Position numbers and translations under genes: made by a program. The notes beneath the pieces are model-generated. The model was given only the letters and a program-made list of their open reading frames with translations, was not told the origin of the DNA and did not search any database. A stretch of 63,972 bases of DNA, filler included, from Licmophora abbreviata (taxonomy: Eukaryota): the NCBI GenBank assembly GCA_900291995.1. It is 15 parts of 15 records of this genome, joined end to end, with 100 filler letters (N's around TTAATTAATTAA, not from the genome) between each part and the next. Parts side by side here need not be neighbours in the genome. Positions count along the whole stretch, not along the records: positions 57,303 to 58,746 come from OLMU01001024.1; positions 58,847 to 60,960 come from OLMU01001025.1; 13 more parts are not named here. One strand, 5' to 3'. This document shows positions 7,840 to 61,061 of the stretch, in pieces; positions within the stretch are counted from its first letter, which is position 1; every line of letters starts with the position of its first letter.

Positions 7840-8403
7840 ATGCGCTATCAAATCAGTGGCAAACAAATCGACGTGGGTGAAGCGCTGCAGACACACGTCA
7901 AAACCGAACTCGGCGAAGCCGTGGCAAAATACGCCGAACGCCCGACCGATGCGCATGTGATATTTTCCAAGAACGCCAGCGAATACGCCTGCGAAACCAT
8001 TGTCCACCTCTCGACCGGCCTGACCGCGCAGGCCAAGGCCAATGCGCATGAAATCTACAGCGCATTCGATCAATGCTGCGCCAAGATGGAAAAACAACTT
8101 CGCCGGTACAAGCGCCGCCTCAAGGACCACCACAGGGATCGTCCGCAACCGGTTGAACTTTCCGGCGCGTCCTCTTATATCCTCGCCTCGGAGCGGGAAG
8201 ATGTGGATTCGGAGCCAGACAGCCTCCAGCCGATCATCGTCGCCGAGATGGAGACACAGATACCGTCCCTGTCCGTCGGTGAAGCGGTGATGCAAATGGA
8301 GCTGGCGGGCGCACCGGTCCTCGTTTTCCGCAATGAGGGAAGCAAGGGATTGAATGTCGTGTATCGCCGCGAAGACGGCAACATCGGCTGGATCGACCCT
8401 TAA
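7840..8403 (+). CDS. hpf: ribosome hibernation promoting factor (long HPF/RaiA)
   Basis: MRYQISGKQIDVGEAL, KQLRRYKRRLKDHH, VVYRREDGNIGWIDP. Confidence 0.93.
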   Translation: MRYQISGKQIDVGEALQTHVKTELGEAVAKYAERPTDAHVIFSKNASEYACETIVHLSTGLTAQAKANAHEIYSAFDQCCAKMEKQLRRYKRRLKDHHRDRPQPVELSGASSYILASEREDVDSEPDSLQPIIVAEMETQIPSLSVGEAVMQMELAGAPVLVFRNEGSKGLNVVYRREDGNIGWIDP

Positions 8404-8453
8404 GAGACACGAGCATCGGGACGGTACAATCTAACCCGAATGAGAGCCGATAG

Positions 8454-8918
8454 ATGGATATTCAAATGATCCTCAAGCCCGAGGCGGTCCGCGTTCTGTC
8501 TGCGGTGTCCAGCAAGAAACGCCTCCTGCACGAGCTGGGCGGCATTGCGGAATCCGTATACAATCTCAATCAGTCATTGGTGGTTGAGGCGTTGCAGGAA
8601 CGCGAAAGCCTGGGGCCGACAGGCGTGGGGAACGGCGTTGCCCTACCCCATGCCCGTCTCGATGATCTTGACGAGGTTGTGGGCGCGCTGGTGATGCTGG
8701 AAAAGCCGGTTGATTTCGACTCCGTCGATCGTCAGCCGGTCGATCTGGCCTTTGCCCTGTTCGCACCTCGCGATGCCGGGGTCGAGCATCTCAAGGCGCT
8801 CGCTCTGGTGTCCCGCACCCTGCGCGATCCGTCGGTCTGTGCCAAGCTGCGCGCCAACATGGACCCGTCCACGCTCTATACCATCGTGACCGAGGCCCAA
8901 TCGGCACAGGCGGCCTGA
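8454..8918 (+). CDS. ptsN: PTS IIA-Ntr
   Basis: RESLGPTGVGNGVALPHAR, HLKALA. Confidence 0.92.
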   Translation: MDIQMILKPEAVRVLSAVSSKKRLLHELGGIAESVYNLNQSLVVEALQERESLGPTGVGNGVALPHARLDDLDEVVGALVMLEKPVDFDSVDRQPVDLAFALFAPRDAGVEHLKALALVSRTLRDPSVCAKLRANMDPSTLYTIVTEAQSAQAA

Positions 8919-8928
8919 CGCGCTCGGA

Positions 8929-10362
8929 TTACGAGGCGCTCCACGCCTCGAAGCCGAACATCACGTAATCCCGCTGGTAGATATCACTCACCAGCGCCTC
9001 GATTTCGTCGTCATAGATATCCGCCAAGGCAATCGGGCTGTCGGCCGGCGCTTCTGGCGGCCGCTTGGCCGCCGCATATCCAATCTCTCCCGCCAGCATG
9101 GCCAGGTGCTTTGCCATGTCAGCCTCCCGGATCACCATATCCGGTATCCCGAACTGGGCCATGCCCTGCAGAATCGCCACCTGTGACGCCCAATGCGCGT
9201 CGATCCGGATATTCGTCTGGCCCGACAGATTGGCTCGCAGGAAATTCAGAAACCCGACGAATGCCTCTCGATGGGCGCGACGATCATAGGACTCGTCAGG
9301 CCCGCCGCCGGGAATGGGAACCTTGTAGAAATTGCGCAGCGTCTTGCGGATATCCGCAAAAGCCCCCGGCCCGGTCGACAATATTCTTTTGCAAAACGCG
9401 TCATGCGCCCGGGCCACCGGATGGCGCAGCACGGTAAAGCTGCGATGCCCGGCATTGCGCCGCTTCCACTGACGCAGGGCTTTCTGGTTCAGATGCGTGG
9501 GCAGCGTATCAGGGGCGACATCATCCAATGCCGCCATCCAGGCACAGACCTCATCCTCAGGTCCCGAGCGCACCGGCATGTATAGCAAAGGCGCATGCGC
9601 AGCCGTCACATAGCCCGGCACCGCCGCGCCGCGCCGCGGTTCGAAATTCGGCGTGCGCGACAGGTTGAACAGATCCTGCCCCGACAAAGCCCGTTCCATC
9701 TCGTCGAAATTCGAGACCTTGCTCTCCAACGCGCCGGGGTTCTGTTTCTTCAAGGACTCGTCAAGCGCCTCGAGCCGTTCTTCACTGCCAAGAAATCGGG
9801 CCAGACCATTGAGCACGTCAAGGCTTTGAAGGTCCTCATACGCAAGATAGAACGCCGTCTGCCCAGTCACCTGAAGCCGGTTCAGCAAGAACACCTGGAA
9901 CGACTGAAGATGGGCCACATGCTTGTCGAACTCGGCCACATCGAAGCGCACCTTGCTGTCGCGGCGGCGTTTGACGTTGGTCAGTTTCCACTGCCCCGTG
10001 GCCTGCGCGATCTTCCATGACACATAACTGTCCACCGGGTTCCGGGTCAGCACGATCTTGGCACAACGCGGATCATTCAGGCTGATATCCAGAACGCGCC
10101 TGTCGTGATCGTGAAAGAACCGAAACCCGCCAAGACCTTTGGAGTCCGTCTTGATCGTCTCGATCAGGCGCATGGGATCGGCATCGCGCATGGCCTGCGT
10201 GACGCCCAGTATCTCGGTCCGGTTGGGATACCCGATGAAATGCGGATTGAACGCCTCTCCGTGGCACTCGAACGCATCGAACGCATTCAGATTCGTCTCG
10301 AGAAAATTCGAGCCGGTGCGCATTTCCGCGAACACCACGAAGTAATCAAAAGGGCCGGTCAT
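8929..10362 (-). CDS. NodH/Stf0-like sulfotransferase with two sulfotransferase-like halves
   Basis: MRTGSNFL and LTRNPVDSYVS in the N-half; FTVLRHPVAR and DAHWASQ in the C-half. Confidence 0.75.
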   Translation of the reverse strand: MTGPFDYFVVFAEMRTGSNFLETNLNAFDAFECHGEAFNPHFIGYPNRTEILGVTQAMRDADPMRLIETIKTDSKGLGGFRFFHDHDRRVLDISLNDPRCAKIVLTRNPVDSYVSWKIAQATGQWKLTNVKRRRDSKVRFDVAEFDKHVAHLQSFQVFLLNRLQVTGQTAFYLAYEDLQSLDVLNGLARFLGSEERLEALDESLKKQNPGALESKVSNFDEMERALSGQDLFNLSRTPNFEPRRGAAVPGYVTAAHAPLLYMPVRSGPEDEVCAWMAALDDVAPDTLPTHLNQKALRQWKRRNAGHRSFTVLRHPVARAHDAFCKRILSTGPGAFADIRKTLRNFYKVPIPGGGPDESYDRRAHREAFVGFLNFLRANLSGQTNIRIDAHWASQVAILQGMAQFGIPDMVIREADMAKHLAMLAGEIGYAAAKRPPEAPADSPIALADIYDDEIEALVSDIYQRDYVMFGFEAWSAS

Positions 10363-14492: not shown

Positions 14493-15293
14493 TCACTCCG
14501 ATCCCATCTCTTTCATCATCCGTTCGATGCGCGACACATCCTCAGGGTTGTTTAACTCCCAGAACTGTCGCCCGCGCGCCTCGACCTCGACACAGCGCAC
14601 CGCGCGCCCGTTTTCCAGAAACCTGAGCTGCTCCAGCCCCTCCAGCCCCTCGAGCGGCCCCTCCGACCAGCCCGGATAGGCCGACAGCGCCGCCGCGCGA
14701 TAGGCATAGACCCCAACATGGTGAAACACCGGCGTCGCCGCGTCATCCTCATAGGTTCCGGGCGTGTAGGGGATCACTTCCTTCGAGAAATAAAGCGCAT
14801 GGCCCCGGCTGTCGAAAACGGCCGTCGTGCCGCCCACACGGCCTGCGCGCCGATCTTCCAGAAACCCGTTCAACGCGCGCCCGTCGCAGCGCAGCACAGG
14901 CGTCGCCATGCCGGCCTCGGCATCGTTGCCCAAGGCCTCGATCAACGCCTCGACGAACCAATGCGGCGTCAGCGGCGCATCTCCCTGCAGGTTGACCACG
15001 ATATCATAACCGCCGCCAAGCACCTCATGCGCTTCCGCGCAGCGTTCCGTCCCATTGCGACAGGTCTCCGAGGTCATCGCCACCTCGGCACCGAACCCTT
15101 CGACGGCCTGTCGAATACGATCATCATCGGTGGCCACCACCACCCGGTGATCGCCCCCGACTTGGCTCGCCGCCTCCCAACTGCGCTGGATCAGGCTCTT
15201 TTTGGCACCGCTCGCGCCGGTCAATTCGACCAGCGGCTTGCCCGGATACCGGCTTGACGCATAGCGCGCCGGAATGACGATCAGAACCCGCAT
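14493..15293 (-). CDS. kdsB: CMP-Kdo synthetase (KdsB/KpsU)
   Basis: IPARYASSRYPGKPL, NGTERC, NLQGDAPL, LEQLRFLENG. Confidence 0.9.
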   Translation of the reverse strand: MRVLIVIPARYASSRYPGKPLVELTGASGAKKSLIQRSWEAASQVGGDHRVVVATDDDRIRQAVEGFGAEVAMTSETCRNGTERCAEAHEVLGGGYDIVVNLQGDAPLTPHWFVEALIEALGNDAEAGMATPVLRCDGRALNGFLEDRRAGRVGGTTAVFDSRGHALYFSKEVIPYTPGTYEDDAATPVFHHVGVYAYRAAALSAYPGWSEGPLEGLEGLEQLRFLENGRAVRCVEVEARGRQFWELNNPEDVSRIERMMKEMGSE

Positions 15294-16090
15294 CAGCCCG
15301 CCTTCAACGTGACGCCCGGCGCATAGGCAATGAAGAACGGGTTTGCGAACCCGTCCTTGCCATAATGCAAAGGCTGGTGATCGTCGAAGCGCACCACCTG
15401 ACCGCCTGCCCCCTGCAGCACGGCTTGGCCTGCGGCGGTATCCCATTCCATCGTGCGCCCAAGCCTTGGATACAGATCCGCCTCACCCGTCGCCACCAGA
15501 CAGAACTTGAGCGACGAGCCCGCGCTCGTCATGTCCTTGACGCCATATTGACTGATGTAATCGTCAGTCGCCTGATCGCGGTGCGATTTGCTGGCCACCA
15601 CCATCAAAGCCGCATTGTCGGGCGTCGACACGGCGATCTCGGTCATCGCACCCGGCATCTGCAGATCGAACGGCCCGGCCTCTTCGACCGACACACCATC
15701 GGCGCGGGTGAAAAACATCCGTTCTTTCGCGGGCGCATAAACCACCCCGCGCACCGGAACGCCGTTTTCCACATAGGCGATATTCACGGTGAAATCCCCA
15801 CGGCGATGGATGAATTCCTTGGTGCCATCCAGCGGATCGACGATCAGAAAGGTCTCGACGCTCTGCCCATGCGACGCCGCCTGCTCTTCGGTCACCAGTG
15901 CCACATCCGGAAACGCCTTGCGCAGACCCTCGGAAATCAGCGCATCCGCCGCCTCGTCGGCTTCGGTCACGGGGCTGTCGTCAGACTTCACCTTCACATC
16001 GAAATCATCGGAATTGTAGATTTCCATGATCCGGTCACCCGCTTCCAGCGCCAACCGGCGCATGACCGTAACAAGCTTGTCGTGATCCAA
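15293..16090 (-). CDS. cysQ: 3'(2'),5'-bisphosphate nucleotidase
   Basis: SPVTEAD, VDPLDGTKEF, GSSLKFC, WDTAAG. Confidence 0.94.
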   Translation of the reverse strand: MDHDKLVTVMRRLALEAGDRIMEIYNSDDFDVKVKSDDSPVTEADEAADALISEGLRKAFPDVALVTEEQAASHGQSVETFLIVDPLDGTKEFIHRRGDFTVNIAYVENGVPVRGVVYAPAKERMFFTRADGVSVEEAGPFDLQMPGAMTEIAVSTPDNAALMVVASKSHRDQATDDYISQYGVKDMTSAGSSLKFCLVATGEADLYPRLGRTMEWDTAAGQAVLQGAGGQVVRFDDHQPLHYGKDGFANPFFIAYAPGVTLKAG

Positions 16091-16227
16091 TGTGATACTC
16101 CTGCCTACCTTTTGTACCGCGTTGACACGGCATGTTGATCGAATGCCTCGCGCCCTTTATGGTATGCAGGTAACGGGACAGCAAGAAGTCCGTGCCACAT
16201 TCCGGCAGGCTGACAGGCGACGAGTAG

Positions 16228-48747: not shown

Positions 48748-50180
48748 TCAAGGATGCGGCTTGAATTCCAGAAGTATGGCCGAAACATCGTCGGCAAAAT
48801 CATCCGAACCTGAAAACGTGGACAGGTTCCATGTCAGAGCCTCAAGACAGGCGGGGCCATGTATGTCGCGCAGCTCGGAGAGAATGCCGGAAAGACCCTC
48901 GTTGTCCAGCAATTGACCCTTGATGTCCGCGCATTCGACAATGCCATCCGAATGGATCAGCAGCCTTTCACCAGGGCCGAGGTCAAAAGAAACCTGCTCG
49001 AACTTCGCAGTAGGCAAAAGCCCGACAGGAAGGCCGCCATGTCCCGCCCATTCGATCGTTCCATCGCGGCGCTGAATGGCTGGATGAGGATGCCCCGCCT
49101 GCGCCAGATCAACCTTGCCACAGGCCAGATCCACATCGGCCAGGATCATGGTGAAATACAGTTCGGTATCCATTTCATCGAGAATCAGTTTGTTCAGAGC
49201 GGCAATGGTTTCTGCGGGGGGTCGCATATCGAACCGACCAGCTTCCGCCTCGTATAGGGCGAGGTTCTGCTCGGGCGCGAAAGCCGAGAGATACCCCGCA
49301 AGCCGCGCGGTCATCAGCGCCGAGCTGATGCCATGTCCGGACACGTCGATGGCATAAAGGCCAATCCGGTTTTCATCGACGGGGAACATGCCCACAAGGT
49401 CGCCCCCGACATGCCCGCTCGACCGAAGCAAAAGCGACACNNNNNNNNNNNNNNNNNNNNNNNNNNNNNNNNNNNNNNNNNNNNTTAATTAATTAANNNN
49501 NNNNNNNNNNNNNNNNNNNNNNNNNNNNNNNNNNNNNNNNCCCCGACATGCCCGCTCGACCGAAGCAAAAGCGACACCTGCGCCGCGCCGAAATCGCGGT
49601 AGCGGTCATTGACAAGCGACTGCTGAAGTTTCCGAGCTTCGACAAGATCGCTGTTGAGGGACTCGTAGAGAACCTGCAGTTCTTCGAGCGTACTGGCGAT
49701 CAACCGGTTCTTTTCCGTCAATTCCCGTTCCATCCGCAAAATGCGATCACCGGCAGCAATTCGGGCGCGCAATTCCGAGGAATTCACTGGTTTTGTCAGA
49801 AAGTCATCGGCACCCGCGTCCAGTCCGCAGGCGATATCCTCTTTCCCGCTTTTCGATGTGAGAAGGATGAAATACCCATAGTTTTCACGCGGCATGTCCC
49901 GGAACATGCGGCAGAAATCCAAACCGTTCATGCCCGGCATCACCCAGTCGCTGATCACCAGATCGGGGGGAGCGATTGCGCAGATGGCCATTGCGGCAGC
50001 CCCATCATCAGCTTCCATCACGTGAAAGCCCCACTGGCTCAGCGCGGCGCTGACGATCCGGCGCTGAGCCGGACTATCGTCAACGACCAACACCCGGCGG
50101 ATCGCCTGCGGCTGCGAACCGATGTGAAAAGCAACTTGTTCCGGACTTCCCAATGACAACACCCTTTTCCATAAGGGCAC
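48748..50180 (-). CDS. receiver domain plus PP2C/SpoIIE phosphatase (RbaY-like; 37-bp contig overlap at gap)
   Basis: VVDD, SDWVMP, TKP; VGGD, DVSGHG, AGH, SDG, DDVS. Confidence 0.9.
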
Positions 50181-50301
50181 GGTTTAGGACCAGTCACTTA
50201 AATCTTGGTGAAAGATTGGATTTGATCTTTTCGACCGCCACGTTTGAGATTTGCTTAGGGTTTTTGACCGAACATCGCCCGGTCGCAACCAGAGGCCTGA
50301 T

Positions 50302-50634
50302 ATGATCGACTGGAACCGGGTGAAAATTCTTCGGACGGAACTTGGCGCTGAAAACTTCGCGGATGTCGTCGGTCTGTTCCTCGATGAAATGGAAGCCGAA
50401 TTGCCCAAGCTGCCACATGCGGACACGCAGTCCGAATTGGTGGATCTGCTGCATTTCCTGAAAGGTGGCGCCCTGAACCTTGGCTTTGCGGAATTTTCGG
50501 AGTTGTGCCAGGACGGCGAAACCAAAGCCACGGGAAACGGGCCTCAGAACGTGAATATCGGGCAGATCGTCGCATCCTATCACCAGTCACGCGCGTGTTT
50601 TGTCGATGGGCTGGACAAGTTTGACACGGATTAG
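50302..50634 (+). CDS. Hpt domain protein
   Basis: LHFLKGGALNLGF. Confidence 0.85.
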   Translation: MIDWNRVKILRTELGAENFADVVGLFLDEMEAELPKLPHADTQSELVDLLHFLKGGALNLGFAEFSELCQDGETKATGNGPQNVNIGQIVASYHQSRACFVDGLDKFDTD

Positions 50635-53602: not shown

Positions 53603-53936
53603 TTTTGGACAGGGTGAACATCAAAGACGGCCCACCCAATGTGCGCGACCGACAGCGCCCGAACCCAAACGTTTGTTCTGGAAACCTGAACGACACTTGG
53701 ATGGTTGTCCGATGGCCTGCAGAAAATGCCTGTACGTATCCCATTTGGGACATGGACGGGTGCATCAGCTTTGTCTACCGTCGAACGGTCGCTTCAAAGG
53801 GCGCGGGAGGCGTTCCACAGGGGCCGCTCCAAGGCAGGATGGGTTAAATGGTCAAGGTTTAGACATAACGCGTGTTTAGCGCGCGAAATTCATGTCCTAA
53901 CCGTATGAGAAGAGGTAACAGTTGCGTATTTTTTTG

Positions 53937-55037
53937 ATGAATCCAATTCTTGTTGCGGCGGCCTTTTCTTTGACCCTGCAAACGACCCTTTCGGCGGAAA
54001 CGATCGTCGGAATCGCCGGACCGCTAACTGGAAACGTTGCGCTGAACGGCGAACAGCAAGATCTCGGCGCACAGAGGGCGATCCTGGACCTGAACGAGGC
54101 GGGCGGCCTTCTTGGCGAAACGGTCGATTTCGTCTCCGTTGACGATGCCTGCGATACCGAACAGGCCATCGCTGCGGCCAACCGTTTGATCGCTGCAAAT
54201 GTGAGTATGGTCATCGGCCACCTGTGTTCGCGGACCTCGATTGCGGCAAGCAAGCTGTACGATGCGGCGGGTATCATCATGATCTCGCCGGCCTCCACGA
54301 ATCCCGCTGTTACGGAAGCCGGACTGGAGGGTGTGTTCCGCACCATCGGCAGGGACGATGCGCAAGCTGCTGTTGCCGCGACTTTCATTCTGGAGAACTT
54401 CGCCGACCACGCCATTGCGCTGCTGCACGACGGAAACACCTATGGCAAGGGCTTGGTCGAAGGGGTCAAGGCCGAACTGAATGCCGCAGGGAAAAAAGAA
54501 GCCCTGTTCGCCACGTTCGAAGCGGATCAGGAAAGCTATTCCGCCGTGATCGCAGAGGTGGTCGCTGCCGGGGCTGGCGTGATCTATGCGGTCAGCAACG
54601 GGGTGAACGATGCCGCCCTACTTACCCGCCAGCTCAAGGAAGTGATGCCCGACGTGGTCATGATTTCTGCCGACTCAATGGCAGGGGACGGGTTTTCTCT
54701 GATCGCGGGTGAGGCGGCCCCCGGCACTTTCTTCACCTTCGGGCCTGACGCGCGCCTCGCGTCGCGCGCGGCCGAGGTCGTCAACAGCTTCCGGGACGAA
54801 GAGTTTTATGAACCCGAAGGGTATACGCTCTACAGCTATGCGGCCGTCCAGGCCTGGGCTCAAGCCGTGGAGGCCGCAGGCACAACAGCGACACCCGACG
54901 TGATCCTGGCCCTGCGGTCGGGAACATTTGACACGGTCATCGGTGACATTGGTTTCGACGAAAAGGGTGATGTGACCGGCATCGATAACTTCGTGATGTA
55001 CGTGTGGGGCCAGTCACGGTATGCGCAGGTCGAGTAA
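53937..55037 (+). CDS. LivK/LivJ-like type I periplasmic binding protein (orphan)
   Basis: Signal peptide, GIAGPLTG, DDAC, IGHLCS, SPASTNP, FRTIGRDDAQ, FDTVIGDIGFDEKGD. Confidence 0.9.
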   Translation: MNPILVAAAFSLTLQTTLSAETIVGIAGPLTGNVALNGEQQDLGAQRAILDLNEAGGLLGETVDFVSVDDACDTEQAIAAANRLIAANVSMVIGHLCSRTSIAASKLYDAAGIIMISPASTNPAVTEAGLEGVFRTIGRDDAQAAVAATFILENFADHAIALLHDGNTYGKGLVEGVKAELNAAGKKEALFATFEADQESYSAVIAEVVAAGAGVIYAVSNGVNDAALLTRQLKEVMPDVVMISADSMAGDGFSLIAGEAAPGTFFTFGPDARLASRAAEVVNSFRDEEFYEPEGYTLYSYAAVQAWAQAVEAAGTTATPDVILALRSGTFDTVIGDIGFDEKGDVTGIDNFVMYVWGQSRYAQVE

Positions 55038-58000
55038 CGCGGCTCGCGAAGGCCGCGTTGCCTCGAAAGACCCAACTGTCCAACACGGTCTTTTTCGAAA
55101 TCTTCTGTCCAGCGTGAAAACCCGTCTGATGGTCGCATTCCTGGCCATCAGCTTCTTCGCGATCTCCGCAGCGGCCCTTGGCATGTGGTCGCTTGCACGG
55201 GTGGACAGTTCGTTGCGGGTCGTCACCGATGTGCGCATTCCTGAAACCCTGACACTGACCGATGTCGCCCGGCAAACCCAGCAGGTATTGCGCGCCGCGC
55301 CGGCCTTGTTGATTGTCAGCGACGAGGAACAGCGCAGCGCGACGTCAGCGCGTGTGCTCAAAGAAACCGACCAGTTGAGCCGGTTGATTTCACAGGTAAA
55401 CGCCGCGGAGCCGCGTGTCATCTTCGAGGCCTTCCACTCAAATCTTATGACACTCGACGCATTGGTCGAAAGACGCCTTGCCACCAGCAATCAGCGCGAA
55501 AGCGTTTATGGACGGCTTATCAAGGCCTCTGACGTGGCCGCGCGCCTCGTATCAGCTGCGGAACGTATTCTGGGTGGCCAGCTCAGTGAATGGAACACAG
55601 GCGATGCGGCGGACGCCGCAGAACTGACGGACCGGCAGGTTCAGTTGTCGCAAAGCATTATCGGAATGCTGCCGCAAATCGACCTTCTCACGAAGATCGG
55701 AGACCTGAAATCTGCGCTGCAACGGGTATCGGAGGCCACAACGGAGGAAGAAATCGATGTCCTCGCATTTGGCCTGCAGCGCGCCATTCTCGATGTGGAA
55801 GACGTCGCCAACGTGGTGCCCGACAGGGCTCGGTCCCGGCTCTTGCGGCAAGTGGACATCCTTAAAGACCTGATCGCGGGAGACTCGGGGTTGCCGGCGC
55901 TCAGAAAACAGGAACTTCGCCTGATCGCTGAAGCCGAACGCGCATTGGCAATCAATGCAAGCTTGTCCGTCGAATTGAGCGAAAGCGTCGACCGTCTGGT
56001 TGTAGCGGCCAAGGCCGAGATCGAGCAGGCCAAGTCCGAGGCGACAACGGTGACCAAGCGCAACACGGTGATCCTGCAGGGAATGGGGGCCGCAAGCGTT
56101 CTGTTCTCCGTGTTGATCGGGTGGCTCTATGTAAGCCGCGATCTGATTGCACGTCTGGTCGGATTGTCGCGCAGCATGTTGTCGATCGCGGACGGCAAGC
56201 TTGATGTTGATTTGCCGGAAGCCGACAGCAACGACGAGATCGGGCAAATGGCGGCGGCGCTCACGGTGTTTCGCGACACGGCCGCGGAAGTTCAGAGGTC
56301 GAATCTGTTCGAGATCCGAACGGCGCGGCAGCGCTTGCAGGAGGCGATCCGCAGCCTGTCCCAAGGCTTTGCGCTGTTCGATCAGGACGGTGGGCTTCTC
56401 ATCTGCAATGCCCGATACCGCGAGATCATGCTCGGCGACGTGCAGCCCCTTGAAGAGGGAATACCGTTTGCCTGGATCGCTGCGAAAGCCGCAGACTCCG
56501 GCCGGTTCCTCGCCGCCGCGGATGATCCCGACGCCTGGCGACGGGCCCTTCTGGCGTCCTTCCGGTCAGGGGCGCACACGTCAAACGAACGGTTCGACAC
56601 GGATCAATGGGCGCAAGTAACAGTTCGGAGTGCGGGCGAGGTGGGAACGGTGGTGGTCCTGTCCGACATCACCGAACTCAAGCGCATATCGGACGAACTG
56701 CTTGTGGCAAAGGACGAAGCCGAAGCGGCCAATCACGCGAAGAGCACCTTCCTGGCGTCCATGAGCCACGAAATTCGTACCCCTTTGAATGGGATCATGG
56801 GGATGTCGGCGCTGCTCAAGGGCACGCGCATGGATGCGGAACAACGCGATTTTGCCGCGACGATCAACGAAGCGGCCGAAACGCTGTTGACGATCATCAA
56901 TGACATCCTCGACTTTTCTAAAGTCGAGGCCGGCGCAATGGAGCTTGAAAAAGCGCCGGTGGATCTGGTCGATGCGGTTGAGAGCGCAGTTGAATTGCTG
57001 GCACCCAAGGCCCGGGAAAAAGGCATCGTGCTTGCCTGTCGCCTGTCGCCCGACACACCACCCGCTATCTTGAGCGACAGCGTCCGACTGAAGCAGATCC
57101 TCCTGAACCTTCTGAATAACGCCATCAAGTTCACGGACGCGGGCGAGGTCGCCGTGTCTGTCGAAAGGATCGCGCCGGAAACCGGCGCGGACTGGTTGCA
57201 GANNNNNNNNNNNNNNNNNNNNNNNNNNNNNNNNNNNNNNNNNNNNTTAATTAATTAANNNNNNNNNNNNNNNNNNNNNNNNNNNNNNNNNNNNNNNNNN
57301 NNCACGGATCGGATGGATCGATTGTTCAAGTCCTTCAGCCAGGTCGATGCTTCCACCACCCGGCGTTTTGGCGGTACTGGTCTGGGGCTGGTGATCACGC
57401 AAAGGATCACCACGTTGATGGGTGGCGAAATAGAGGTAGCAAGCACGCCGAGTGTCGGCTCCGTTTTCACCCTCAAGCTGCCATTCGAGGCGGCTGCACT
57501 GCCCCCATCGCACCGGCTCGACGACTTATTGGCATTGGTCAGGCATCGCCGCATCCTGATCGTGGACGACCATAGGACGAATCTGACAATCCTGGCCGAA
57601 CGCTTGCTGAGCTGGGATATGACACCCGAACTCGCCGACCATCCGGATACGGCGGTGGCCTTGCTGCGGGCCGGGCATTCGTTCGACGCCATCATCACCG
57701 ACTTCAAGATGCCTGGCCGGACCGGGCTGCAAATGGCAATCGATATCCGTCAGGAATTCGGCGACCGGGCCCCGCCGATGATCTTGTATAGTTCGGTTTC
57801 GCTTCTCGATCCGGCGATGCGGGCGCAGTTTGAAAGCGCAGGCTTCAATGCGCATCTGATGAAGCCAGCCAAAACGCACAGATTGCTAAACTCGCTTGTC
57901 AACGCAATCTGCCCAGATGCTGACAAGCCAGCCCTGGTCTCGGAGCCGTCTCGGTTTGATTGGTCCAAAATCCGGGCCGAGGACAACCTGAGTATCCTGC

Positions 58001-58392
58001 TCGTGGATGACAATGCGATCAACCGCAAGATCGGGGTCCAGATCCTCAAGCGCCTCGGGCTTCACGCGACCGTGGTGACCAGTGGCGCCGAGGCGTTGAC
58101 TGCCTGCGACGAAGCGTCGTTCGACGTGGTGTTCATGGATATCGAAATGCCCGACATGGACGGGGTGACCACGACCGAGAAGTTGCGCGAACAGCTGGCC
58201 GAGCGACGTCACCCCTATGTCGTGGCGCTGACCGCCAACGCCATGGTGTCGGACAGGGAGAGCTATCTGCAATCGGGGATGGATGACTATCTGAGCAAGC
58301 CGATAGACATCGAGAAACTCACCGCTTGCCTGAGCCGGGCGTGGGATCGGGTACAAAACCAGCCCGGCGATGCAAGCGTGCAAGCGGGGTAG
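55021..58392 (+). CDS. hybrid sensor kinase: TM, TorS-like helical periplasmic domain, TM, HAMP, PAS, HisKA, HATPase, REC, REC (gap inside HATPase; start uncertain)
   Basis: DEIGQMAAAL, FALFDQDGGLLICNARY, MSHEIRTPLNG, NLLNNAIKFT, FGGTGLGL, ITDFKMP, FMDIEMP. Confidence 0.92.
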
Positions 58393-58398
58393 CACAAA

Positions 58399-58887
58399 AT
58401 GGGCGACCACATCGACCTGACAGCCTTGAGGAGACTCAAGAACATGATCGGGGGCAATCCGGCCGATCTCGCGGAGCTGATCGATGACTTTGTAGCCGCC
58501 CTGCCGGGGCAGGTGCAGGCGCTGCATGACCATGCAGGCAACGGCGATCTCGGCGCGCTGCGGATCGCTGCCCACAGCTGTAAATCGAACGCCCGGGACT
58601 TGGGTGCGACGCGCCTCGCCGATCTCTGTGCCCGGCTCGAAACCGAATGCGCCGCGGGGGAGGTGACGGAGCTACCCGCGCAATTGGCGCGGATTGCCGA
58701 AGCGGGTGAGGCGGCCTTGTCCGGCTATTCGAAGCTGGATCTCTTCNNNNNNNNNNNNNNNNNNNNNNNNNNNNNNNNNNNNNNNNNNNNTTAATTAATT
58801 AANNNNNNNNNNNNNNNNNNNNNNNNNNNNNNNNNNNNNNNNNNNNCCTTGTCCGGCTATTCGAAGCTGGATCTCTTCCGTGTCTGA
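58399..58887 (+). CDS. Hpt phosphotransfer protein (32-bp contig overlap at gap)
   Basis: AAHSCKSNARDLGA; ends KLDLFRV*. Confidence 0.9.
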
Positions 58888-60406
58888 CATGAGCGCTGCG
58901 AGAATCTTGATCATCGACGACAACCTGATCAACCGCAAGAAACTGCGGCTGGCGGTGCGCAGTCTGGGATACGATGCCGAAACGGCGGAGGATGGGGCGG
59001 CGGGGCTCAATGCCCTAAAAACCGGACCCTTCGACGCGATCCTGTTGGACATCCTGATGCCCGGTATGGACGGGTTCGAGGTTCTCAAGCGCCTCAAATC
59101 CGACGCGGTGCTGCGGGATCTGCCGGTCATTGTGGTGTCTGACCTTGAGGGCGACACGAAGAGCGTCTCTGCCGCGATCGAGATGGGGGCAGAGGATTTT
59201 CTGCCCAAAAGCTTCGATCCGGTGATCCTGAACGCGCGGCTGAAGGCCTGTTTACGCAAGAAGCAGTTCCGCGATCGGGAGCTTGAGTATTTTCGCAGGA
59301 TCAACGCGTTGACGAATGCGGCGGAGCGGGTCGAGACAGGCCTGTTTGACGAAGAGAGCCTGAACCTCGCCGCGGAGGCCCGCAACAACGACCCGATCGG
59401 CCGTCTGGCCATGGTCTTTCAGGGCATGGCCAACGAAATTCATACCCGCGAGGTCAAGCTGCTGCGTCGCATCCAGACGCTTCAATGCAGCATATTGTTG
59501 CTGATCTGCGGTGGCCTTGCGGGGTTGTATCCGTCCTTGTCCAGATTGGCCGCCGGGTTCGGCGCAAACCCTATCGGGATGTCGTTCTGGGTCGGCCTGT
59601 TCGCGGCCGGCATCTGCACGGTGCTCGTCCTGTTTCGTGGCGGTCTGCCGAAACTGTCACGCAGCGACGTCCTGTTCTTTATCGTTTGGGCCTTCGTGGT
59701 CGGTATTCTGCAACAAATCTCCATCTTTGTGCTGTCTGGACATGTGCAGGCAACATATCTCACGCTGGTGCTCGCGCTTGAGGGCCTTCTGGTCTTCGCT
59801 TTTGCAGCTCTCATGCGGCTCGAAGACATCGTTCCAATGCGCATCCTTGGCTTGTTGGTAGGTCTTGTCGGTGTCGGCATCAGCCTGTCCGAGCGTATGA
59901 ACGGAAACAGCGCAGACGCGAACTTCTGGTTGCTCGCCTCGTTCGTTGCGCCCGTCTTCTTTGCCTTCGAAACGATTGCGGTGGCTGCCAAGCGCCCCGA
60001 ACACATCGATCCGGTTGGCGCAGTGGGCATCATGTTCGCATTCTCGACCATCCTGGCCTTCGCCCTTGCCTTGGGGACCGGAAACATCATCGCGCCCGAA
60101 AAGCTGCTTTCGCCCTTGGGCGCAACGCTTGCGGCGCTGGCCTTTGTCACCGTCGGGACCAATGTCACGTTCTTTATTCTTCTCAAGTTGGGCGGCGGCG
60201 TGTTCACCAGCCAGAAAGCCTACGTGACCGCCCTGGCCGGGGTGCTTTGGGGCATCGTCCTGCTGGGCGAGACCATGTCTTCCCTGGCCTGGGGTGCGAT
60301 CGCGTTGGTTCTGCTTGGAATGTACCTGGTGGGCGCCAAGACCTCGAACGAACCGATCACCATCAAGCGCAACTTCGGGGTCCAGGCCAATGACACACAG
60401 ACATGA
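58880..60406 (+). CDS. fusion of receiver domain, HAMP-like helix and 10-TM EamA/DMT transporter
   Basis: IIDD/LLDILMP/VVS/LPK receiver residues; DPIGRLAMVFQGMA; ten hydrophobic helices in two repeats (..MRLE..RILGLLVGLVGV and ..LLGE..AWGAIALVLLGMYL). Confidence 0.88.
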   Translation: MSDMSAARILIIDDNLINRKKLRLAVRSLGYDAETAEDGAAGLNALKTGPFDAILLDILMPGMDGFEVLKRLKSDAVLRDLPVIVVSDLEGDTKSVSAAIEMGAEDFLPKSFDPVILNARLKACLRKKQFRDRELEYFRRINALTNAAERVETGLFDEESLNLAAEARNNDPIGRLAMVFQGMANEIHTREVKLLRRIQTLQCSILLLICGGLAGLYPSLSRLAAGFGANPIGMSFWVGLFAAGICTVLVLFRGGLPKLSRSDVLFFIVWAFVVGILQQISIFVLSGHVQATYLTLVLALEGLLVFAFAALMRLEDIVPMRILGLLVGLVGVGISLSERMNGNSADANFWLLASFVAPVFFAFETIAVAAKRPEHIDPVGAVGIMFAFSTILAFALALGTGNIIAPEKLLSPLGATLAALAFVTVGTNVTFFILLKLGGGVFTSQKAYVTALAGVLWGIVLLGETMSSLAWGAIALVLLGMYLVGAKTSNEPITIKRNFGVQANDTQT

Positions 60407-60960
60407 CAAACCGGTCGTCCTCATCGTGGATGATACGTCCTTCAACCGCAAGAAACTGAGCGCGGTGCTGGCGGACCTTGGGCTGGAGGCGGTGCTGGCC
60501 GAGGACGGTCAGGCGGGTCTGGACCAGATGCGCAGGCGGGCGTTTGATCTGGTCCTTCTGGACATCGTCATGCCGGGCAAAGACGGCTTTGACGTGCTGT
60601 GCGAGGTGCGCGGCGATGCAAACCTGCACGAGACCCCGATCCTTGTGATCTCTGCGGTCGAGCAGACCGACGAGATCGCCCGTGCGCTCGACCTTGGCGC
60701 GATTGACTTTCTGCCCAAAACGGTTGATCCGCAAATCTTTCGGGCGCGGGTTCTGGGGGCCATCGAAAAGAAACGAATGCGCGATCTTGAGCTGTCCTAT
60801 TTTCACGATGTGGCCCGGCTGACCTCTGCCGCGCATCTGATCCGCGCAGGCCAGACCGACCCCATGGCGCTTGATCTGGACCCGGTGACGCGGCGCGGCG
60901 ATGGGCTGGGCAACCTGGCGCAGGTCTTTGCCGATCTCGCTACCGCCGTCTACAAACGCG
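60390..60960 (+). CDS. paralogous receiver plus HAMP-like protein, 3' end lost in gap
   Basis: IVDD/LLDIVMP/VIS/LPK; linker colinear with that of the upstream gene. Confidence 0.88.
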
Positions 60961-61061
60961 NNNNNNNNNNNNNNNNNNNNNNNNNNNNNNNNNNNNNNNN
61001 NNNNTTAATTAATTAANNNNNNNNNNNNNNNNNNNNNNNNNNNNNNNNNNNNNNNNNNNNG

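Follow-up and report, generated by a model that had tools for sequence, protein, structure and literature searches.

A receiver–HAMP–DMT fusion protein encoded beside a binding protein, a hybrid kinase and an Hpt protein is a candidate phosphorylation-gated solute carrier

Gene content of the locus

The window, by which we mean the whole 63,972-nucleotide stretch analysed here, comes from the Licmophora abbreviata assembly GCA_900291995.1 (29 Mb in 7,734 contigs) and contains 14 N spacers joining contigs. Its DNA is bacterial, with argG, ilvA, rho, hrcA and grpE readable by eye and a GC content of 53-63%.

On the plus strand, a series of genes follow one another with overlapping or closely spaced stops and starts. 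The first encodes a periplasmic solute-binding protein of the Peripla_BP_6 family (53922..55037; Pfam E 9e-43), with a fold of the branched-chain amino acid/amide type, and no permease gene lies beside it. Next is a membrane hybrid histidine kinase of about 1,100 residues (55021..58392), which has two transmembrane segments and the Pfam-based architecture TM-4HB-TM-HAMP-PAS_7-HisKA-HATPase-REC-REC. A stand-alone Hpt protein of 118 residues (58399..58887; Pfam Hpt E 5.5e-11) follows, and its stop overlaps the start of a gene encoding a receiver, a HAMP domain and a drug/metabolite transporter (DMT) domain in one chain (58880..60406; copy 1). Last comes the REC-HAMP part of a second, divergent paralogue (60390..60960; copy 2), which is ended by a contig break.

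Both gaps upstream of copy 1 are closed by a locus with DNA identical to the window (L086), which we excluded from the counts over 17 other loci given below. The kinase is interrupted only by the assembly gap 57203-57302, which L086 bridges with 31 bases while keeping the frame, and the gap 58747-58846 inside the Hpt gene is artificial, the flanking contigs overlapping by 32 bases in L086.

The two copies share 43% identity. A DMT half at the start of another contig, beyond the window (G000:C1026; L003:3-689), is assigned to copy 2 because both pieces have the full-length protein P0230 as their best match among 299 proteins (51% and 62%); roughly 70 codons are missing between them. The apparent adjacency across 60961-61060 is not real, since the window does not place C1026 after C1025.

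About 8 kb upstream, at 48748-50634, the window also holds a receiver-PP2C gene (split by a gap, its PP2C part read from sequence) with a divergent stand-alone Hpt gene; the receiver-PP2C protein is a possible cross-talk partner.

Domain architecture of the fusion protein

Copy 1 was described in a sequence-only reading as a single gap-free frame of 508 residues carrying a canonical receiver at residues 7-125. This description stands: the frame starts at GTG, contains no N, and Pfam places Response_reg (residues 9-121, E 6.7e-25) and two stretches of EamA (E 1.8e-12) on the same chain. The receiver (58898..59254) has the five catalytic residues D13, D14, D57, S87 and K110, along with F107. It is followed by an extension of alpha5, a divergent HAMP domain (about residues 138-190) and a signalling helix up to residue 205 (59255..59494), and then by a ten-helix DMT domain with two EamA repeats (residues 200-488; 59477..60343). 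Each part belongs to a known family, with the caveat that the HAMP match (residues 139-188, E 5.9e-4) scores 20.5 bits, under the Pfam cut-off of 25 bits.

A structural model built from a 58-row alignment (pLDDT 87.9) contains the receiver, a helix at 114-152, a connector, a helix at 172-226 and ten membrane helices. The modelled receiver adopts the (beta/alpha)5 fold and superposes on solved receivers with an rmsd of 1.1-1.5 A.

To describe conservation we used 135 full-length rows, made of 120 database matches and 15 locus proteins including the query, with some overlap. D13, D14, D57, S87 and K110 are all kept in 130 rows; of the remaining five, four are shortened N-terminally and in the fifth, P0023, the receiver is decayed. 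F107 is kept in 134 rows, and an aromatic switch residue of this type is typical of terminal receivers (PMC9981736, accessible text). Averaged over the rows, identity to the query falls from 63% in the receiver to 59% in the linker and 47% in the DMT domain.

The best NCBIfam match of the receiver is the PleD family (E 1.6e-27, far under the family cut-off). Some database names call the homologues DNA-binding response regulators of the OmpR or NarL type, because the names derive from the receiver alone. We rule this identity out for lack of an HTH domain: no HTH family is among the 10 Pfam families matched by 58 rows. The fusion family comprises hundreds of sequences, and databases mis-name it as an ordinary response regulator.

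The fusion is a genuine and patchily distributed gene

Fragmentation of the assembly around the window, with its 14 gaps, raises the question of whether two separate genes were joined by a sequencing or assembly error. We reject this explanation, which is hardly credible given the homologues. Among the best 120 of 358 matches, 119 carry a receiver and EamA on one chain, at identities from 90% down to 38% and including cultured isolates; the single exception is P0023, with its decayed receiver. The ESM Atlas holds two clusters of the fusion, with 73 and 59 members and automatic names only. Contigs of four sequencing runs show no insertion or deletion in the gene, although two of them, which span it whole, are possibly the source of the same DNA. 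No RNA run was listed as holding the gene. The possibility that homologues are always two separate genes is thereby contradicted.

Named carriers are mostly marine Alphaproteobacteria, the cultured ones being Hoeflea prorocentri, Roseibium, Tateyamaria, Dinoroseobacter, Roseivivax and Paragemmobacter. The gene is patchy: counting the centres, 2 of 301 genomes sampled from the order of G002 carry it, as do 9 of 401 sampled from that of G004. A scan of genome contigs returned mostly generic receiver motifs, with full-length relatives at 5 of 79 loci, and a metagenome scan returned two loci, one of them identical to the window.

A few receiver-transporter fusions are reportedly included in Galperin's 2006 and 2010 censuses. 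The largely open-access literature searched yielded no description of a receiver-EamA/DMT fusion; term searches in the accessible parts of PMC11109136, PMC4384028, PMC4395418 and PMC12189002 likewise returned none.

A conserved phosphorelay context

We found a hybrid kinase adjoining the fusion in all 17 other loci (in L010 only the last kinase receiver is on the contig). An Hpt domain is present in 16 of them, 13 times free and three times fused to the kinase, and is absent in L105. In L105 an insertion sequence (8262-9712) sits between kinase and fusion, both of which are cut short, and a second copy lies at 15014-16177.

A receiver profile run in all six frames detected no receiver of a DNA-binding regulator in the 17 loci: the receivers belong to kinases, to the fusion or to three single-domain proteins. 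The latter occur after the kinase in L102, L103 and L110, the loci with a kinase-fused Hpt, where the fusion is encoded on the other strand. These proteins could be the true output at the three loci, which would count against gating of the carrier; the other 14 loci have no other candidate output receiver. From this gene context, we infer that the fusion receiver accepts phosphate from a cognate histidine donor.

A ~600-residue LuxR-type HTH protein is encoded after the fusion in L003 (C1026, after base 830), L104 (434-2278) and L007 (4962-6770), and its C-terminus is hydrolase-like as read from sequence.

Upstream, a binding-protein gene is found in 10 of the 13 other loci that have sequence there. 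Binding-protein genes beside sensor kinases are the pattern of binding-protein-stimulated kinases (PMC8050422, accessible text), and the binding protein of the window is likely the ligand-binding input of its kinase. Input modules vary among loci, from Peripla_BP_6 through several SBP_bac_3 types and DctP to kinases with cytoplasmic GAF/PAS domains. Two types recur: type A (window and L102; identities of 70% for binding proteins and 64% for sensor regions) and type B (L104 and L110; 72% and 54%), whose binding proteins have unrelated folds. Each is found with both DMT types, giving all four combinations in a small sample. Since input modules and DMT types reassort, the carried solute is probably not the sensed ligand, and the idea that the two are identical is unsupported in this small sample.

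A divergent HAMP domain and a modelled signalling spine

The linker had been read as helical and ending in a segment resembling HAMP helix AS2 of the neighbouring kinase. Direct likeness to the kinase HAMP is weak (hhalign probability 12.6%). We base the assignment on Pfam HAMP matches at E<=0.05 in 35 of 58 rows, on relatives found with a linker profile that score above the cut-off in this region (P0163, 32.4 bits; P0214, 35.2; P0200, 28.2; P0272, 25.7), and on the dimer model. Typical HAMP connectors have roughly 14 residues; in the fusion model the first HAMP helix runs to 152 and the second starts at 172, with a connector of about 20 residues.

The dimer was modelled with two copies of residues 5-490. 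It scores 0.48 against 0.00 for the best control (pLDDT 79; runs agree in at least 83% of contacts), a pass at a mark reached by 21 of 30 solved homodimers and by none of 23 single chains; because receiver and HAMP dimers have solved relatives, the pass may stem partly from likeness, and it speaks to likeness rather than to binding. The modelled interface comprises the alpha4-beta5-alpha5 face of the receiver (93-120), a coiled coil (123-138) and a two-helix coil up to 205. Predicted cross-chain contacts between AS1 and AS2 (141-152 with 172-187; expected error 1.5-2 A) form a parallel four-helix HAMP bundle, and one unbroken helix (172-226) is predicted to connect AS2 to TM1. The model thus suggests one continuous spine from the receiver to TM1. 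The two DMT domains make no confident contact in the homodimer model.

The segments from alpha5 to AS1 (43 residues) and from AS2 to TM1 (51 residues) have the same length in all 135 rows, without indels, and the connector has 21 or 22 residues, whereas TM5-6 and TM6-9 vary in length. TM3-5, TM9-10 and the first half of the receiver are also nearly indel-free, and as TM3-5 and TM9-10 are nearly as fixed as the spine, we regard its fixed length as supporting but not decisive.

These features bear on the possibility that the two halves are joined but uncoupled, the DMT domain being a constitutive carrier that merely anchors the receiver at the membrane. Such a protein would have a precedent in CbrA, whose domains are largely independent (PMC7096432, accessible text), and it would fit the decayed receiver of P0023 and two database entries, P0122 and P0123, that begin inside TM1, the former clustering with a 502-residue member. 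An anchor, however, needs neither a helix that runs unbroken and at constant length from HAMP to TM1 nor the HAMP core residues A147, A148, G174, L176 and R190, which are invariant. We hold this possibility to be improbable.

The membrane domain has the DMT fold

The membrane part had been proposed to consist of ten helices in two EamA repeats, N-in, entered directly from the linker. Model helices, Pfam and structure matches agree on this arrangement. EamA is matched in 58 of 58 rows, the K/R bias over 135 rows fits N-in and C-in, and a plain hydropathy scan detects 9 of the 10 DMT helices. Residues 194-489 match the DMT protein LicB (7b0k) with Z 25.8 and an rmsd of 2.5 over 252 aligned residues, followed by TPT (5y78, Z 25.2), SLC35B1 (22.8), PfCRT (20.7) and YddG (5i20, 20.6), the last a comparison proposed beforehand. 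With Z of 20-26 to five DMT structures, a different identity of the membrane region is contradicted. A DMT-only profile also matches LicB (E 1.5e-5). Foldseek of the whole fusion model gave only receivers among the matches listed, phmmer of the DMT part against the PDB gave noise only, and a single-sequence DMT model was poor (pLDDT 50.8) and was left out of the analysis.

No substrate can be transferred from these structures because identity is only 12-16%. The nearest curated DMT models are weak as well (TIGR00950 matches 17 of 21 rows, each time far under its cut-off). Conserved polar and aromatic residues are R222, W237, E364, S444, Q445 and Y448. LicB W167 and E170 correspond in the alignment to F361 and E364, and LicB W17 on TM1 to position 214, where 55 of 135 rows have W and the query has A. 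The TM1 helix of LicB forms part of the cavity lining, bears the essential W17 and contributes to sealing the outer gate (PMC8890701, accessible text).

We tested the fusion against the LicB aromatic box (W17, Y109, W167, Y233 and Y255, plus Y236 and N252), which is encoded in a lic operon. Conserved residues match only W167 and E170. The positions of Y233, Y236, N252 and Y255 are unconserved; the TM8/TM9 ligands are unmatched, N252 and Y255 aligning two positions off Q445 and Y448; and lic genes are absent among the scanned neighbours of fusion loci. A choline importer of the LicB type is accordingly rejected.

A tree of 34 DMT domains groups 24 fused domains in a single clade (support 96/99), separate from their free relatives. 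Positions 214, 279, 301, 364 and 428 depend on the clade. This turnover of cavity positions would suit a DMT domain that is an output but no carrier, in which phosphorylation changes a surface or a pairing (for example of copy 1 with copy 2) so that a partner is bound or a small ion leak opens. The same gene context and cassette evidence that favour a gated carrier apply to this alternative, and it could draw on the lack of confident DMT contacts in the homodimer together with the tandem copies of the fusion, which lie side by side in the window and in L106 and are fused in P0129. Against it, neither the complete ten-helix fold nor the TM6/TM9 signature seen in the fusion's free DMT relatives is lost, and the fusion loci share no conserved partner gene, the LuxR-type neighbour being found in 2 of 17 other loci and on C1026. 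We consider a non-transporting output quite doubtful.

P0129 holds two REC-HAMP-DMT units, 48% identical to each other, in a single chain of 1027 residues that belongs to a 17-member cluster; it is a candidate natural covalent heterodimer.

The REC-HAMP cassette is used with other outputs

A linker-only profile matched 974 cluster representatives. Motif-based sorting of the best 150 of these gave 41 with this DMT type, 19 with an adenylate-cyclase-like partner, 55 with a short tail, 34 others or fragments and one unconfirmed. Pfam runs on 30 chosen cassette proteins identified cyclase, HisKA, SpoIIE, sigma54 and ParA partners. Partners of the cassette thus include kinases and PP2C, and the effector is C-terminal in every case seen. 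P0146 and P0158 carry the same REC-HAMP with a different DMT subfamily; the P0146 domain sits on a long branch that is not firmly placed, which suggests a second recruitment.

The 55 tail proteins end in a conserved ~40-residue tail after REC-HAMP or HAMP-GAF (for example P0159, P0163, P0177, P0188, P0224 and L013:9833-10717). It has no Pfam family match in the proteins scanned, and the ESM Atlas holds a 76-member cluster of this shape, mostly from Actinomycetota. The tail may be an unnamed protein-interaction output.

Because cassette effectors are always C-terminal, the DMT domain takes the output slot and the HAMP domain keeps its normal polarity. The sequence-only reading had called the linker the reverse of normal HAMP use. 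That is right for the compartments, the signal running from cytoplasm to membrane, and wrong for polarity, as the signal enters at AS1 and leaves at AS2 as usual. Its further claim, that the cytoplasmic receiver signals to the membrane domain, is supported by the gene context, the dimer model and the use of the cassette with enzymatic outputs. The kinase-Hpt relay as its input and the second copy downstream are additions to that reading.

The opposite direction, also raised in that reading, is the main rival. The DMT domain would then be a sensor, or transceptor, in which ligand or cycling moves TM1 and acts backwards through HAMP to alter the gain or loss of phosphate by the receiver; the fusion would be a phosphate sink tuning the relay, with the real output elsewhere. 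Transporter folds do serve as sensors, as in Ks-Amt5 and CbrA, and the HAMP domain of LapD signals from its C-terminal to its N-terminal side (PMC3032553, accessible text). Other outputs also exist in the assembly, as judged by its seven Hpt matches and the REC-PP2C and Hpt pair upstream. Moreover, in P0151 (Paragemmobacter straminiformis, WP_185795667.1) and P0152 the REC-HAMP-DMT part is followed in frame by a hybrid kinase with PAS(-GAF) domains, which are cytoplasmic and have no membrane segment of their own; kinase and terminal receiver here share one chain, and L111 is the unfused relative. The join after TM10, however, is short and differs between the two proteins, which suggests a tether rather than a signalling helix. 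Wherever else the cassette was seen, it is followed C-terminally by an effector or a short tail. At most loci a binding protein and a periplasmic domain already form a dedicated sensor, and in 14 of 17 loci the fusion receiver is the only candidate output receiver. On balance, we think a sensor role unlikely.

A proposed mechanism

We favour a phosphorylation-gated solute carrier that ends a binding-protein/kinase/Hpt relay, with a probability of about 55%. The reading draws on the hybrid kinase (17/17), Hpt (16/17) and binding proteins (10/13) at fusion loci, the missing DNA-binding receivers, the phosphosite kept in 130 of 135 rows, the dimer model, the indel-free spine segments, the C-terminal effectors of the cassette and the conserved polar and aromatic DMT residues. 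Counting against it are the query HAMP score under cut-off, the weak match to the HAMP of the neighbouring kinase, a DMT domain less conserved (47%) than the receiver (63%) and clade-dependent at several positions, and the unmatched TM8/TM9 ligands of LicB. Fusion as such does not imply gating, because the CbrA domains are largely independent, the fused kinase being without significant effect on transport kinetics (PMC7096432, accessible text), and the transporter domain of Ks-Amt5 is used as a sensor (PMC5764959, accessible text).

In the proposed mechanism, the periplasmic binding protein would report its ligand to the hybrid kinase, and phosphate would pass from the kinase via Hpt to Asp57, a path suggested by gene order. 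The modelled dimer would be held by the alpha4-beta5-alpha5 face of the receiver, the coiled coil, the four-helix HAMP bundle and the signalling helix. On phosphorylation the receiver pair would rearrange, coiled coil and HAMP would shift register, and the signalling helix may turn or slide TM1, the cavity-lining and gate-forming helix of the DMT fold. Transport of a small organic solute, perhaps an amino acid or amine, would thereby be switched.

More tentatively, and at somewhat less than even odds, the loci would represent a relay without a transcriptional step that ends in a secondary transporter which aspartate phosphorylation gates within seconds, with paired paralogues heterodimerising via the HAMP spine and with REC-HAMP having recruited a DMT domain at least twice. 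If so, heterodimers on a HAMP spine would let one signal switch two different carriers, for example in metabolite exchange with a partner alga or animal.

Two-component systems normally control transport via the amount of transporter made. If the carrier is the effector, an outside cue would instead gate transport immediately and reversibly, in place of a change in gene expression. The fusion also offers a compact system for two questions, namely how a membrane helix responds to HAMP motion and how alternating access of a DMT protein can be regulated through TM1, and it is a possible part for engineered switchable transport.

Comparison with known systems

Like PleD/WspR, REC-PP2C and REC-adenylate cyclase proteins, the fusion combines a canonical receiver with a modelled alpha4-beta5-alpha5 dimer and a coiled coil. 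Unlike these proteins, it has an integral membrane carrier as its effector, with a full HAMP domain interposed between receiver and effector.

With the DMT/EamA transporters LicB, YddG, TPT, SLC35 and PfCRT it shares the ten-helix inverted-repeat fold and the N-in/C-in topology, but it bears a 200-residue regulatory module on TM1. The modelled fusion dimerises via its cytoplasmic spine, whereas LicB does so via TM1/8/9 and TPT, Vrg4 and CST via TM5/10 (PMC8890701, accessible text).

A transporter fold and two-component domains also share one chain in the CbrA/CrbS SLC5-STAC kinases and in Ks-Amt5. There the transporter is N-terminal, in the input slot, while the DMT domain of the fusion is C-terminal to receiver and HAMP, in the output slot. 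We rejected an SLC5/STAC transporter kinase as the identity of the fusion: it has no SLC5 or STAC match in Pfam, and its fold is DMT.

The binding-protein gene beside a hybrid kinase, the four-helix periplasmic domain and the Hpt step recall TorT-TorS and LuxP-LuxQ (PMC8050422, accessible text). Those relays end in transcription regulators, whereas the fusion loci hold none.

Signalling from cytoplasm to membrane through HAMP is already known from LapD, which likewise uses HAMP and a signalling helix (PMC3032553, accessible text). In LapD the input is c-di-GMP, the signal runs from HAMP AS2 to AS1 and the output is periplasmic protein binding; in the fusion, phosphorylation would act at the AS1 side and the output would be a carrier.
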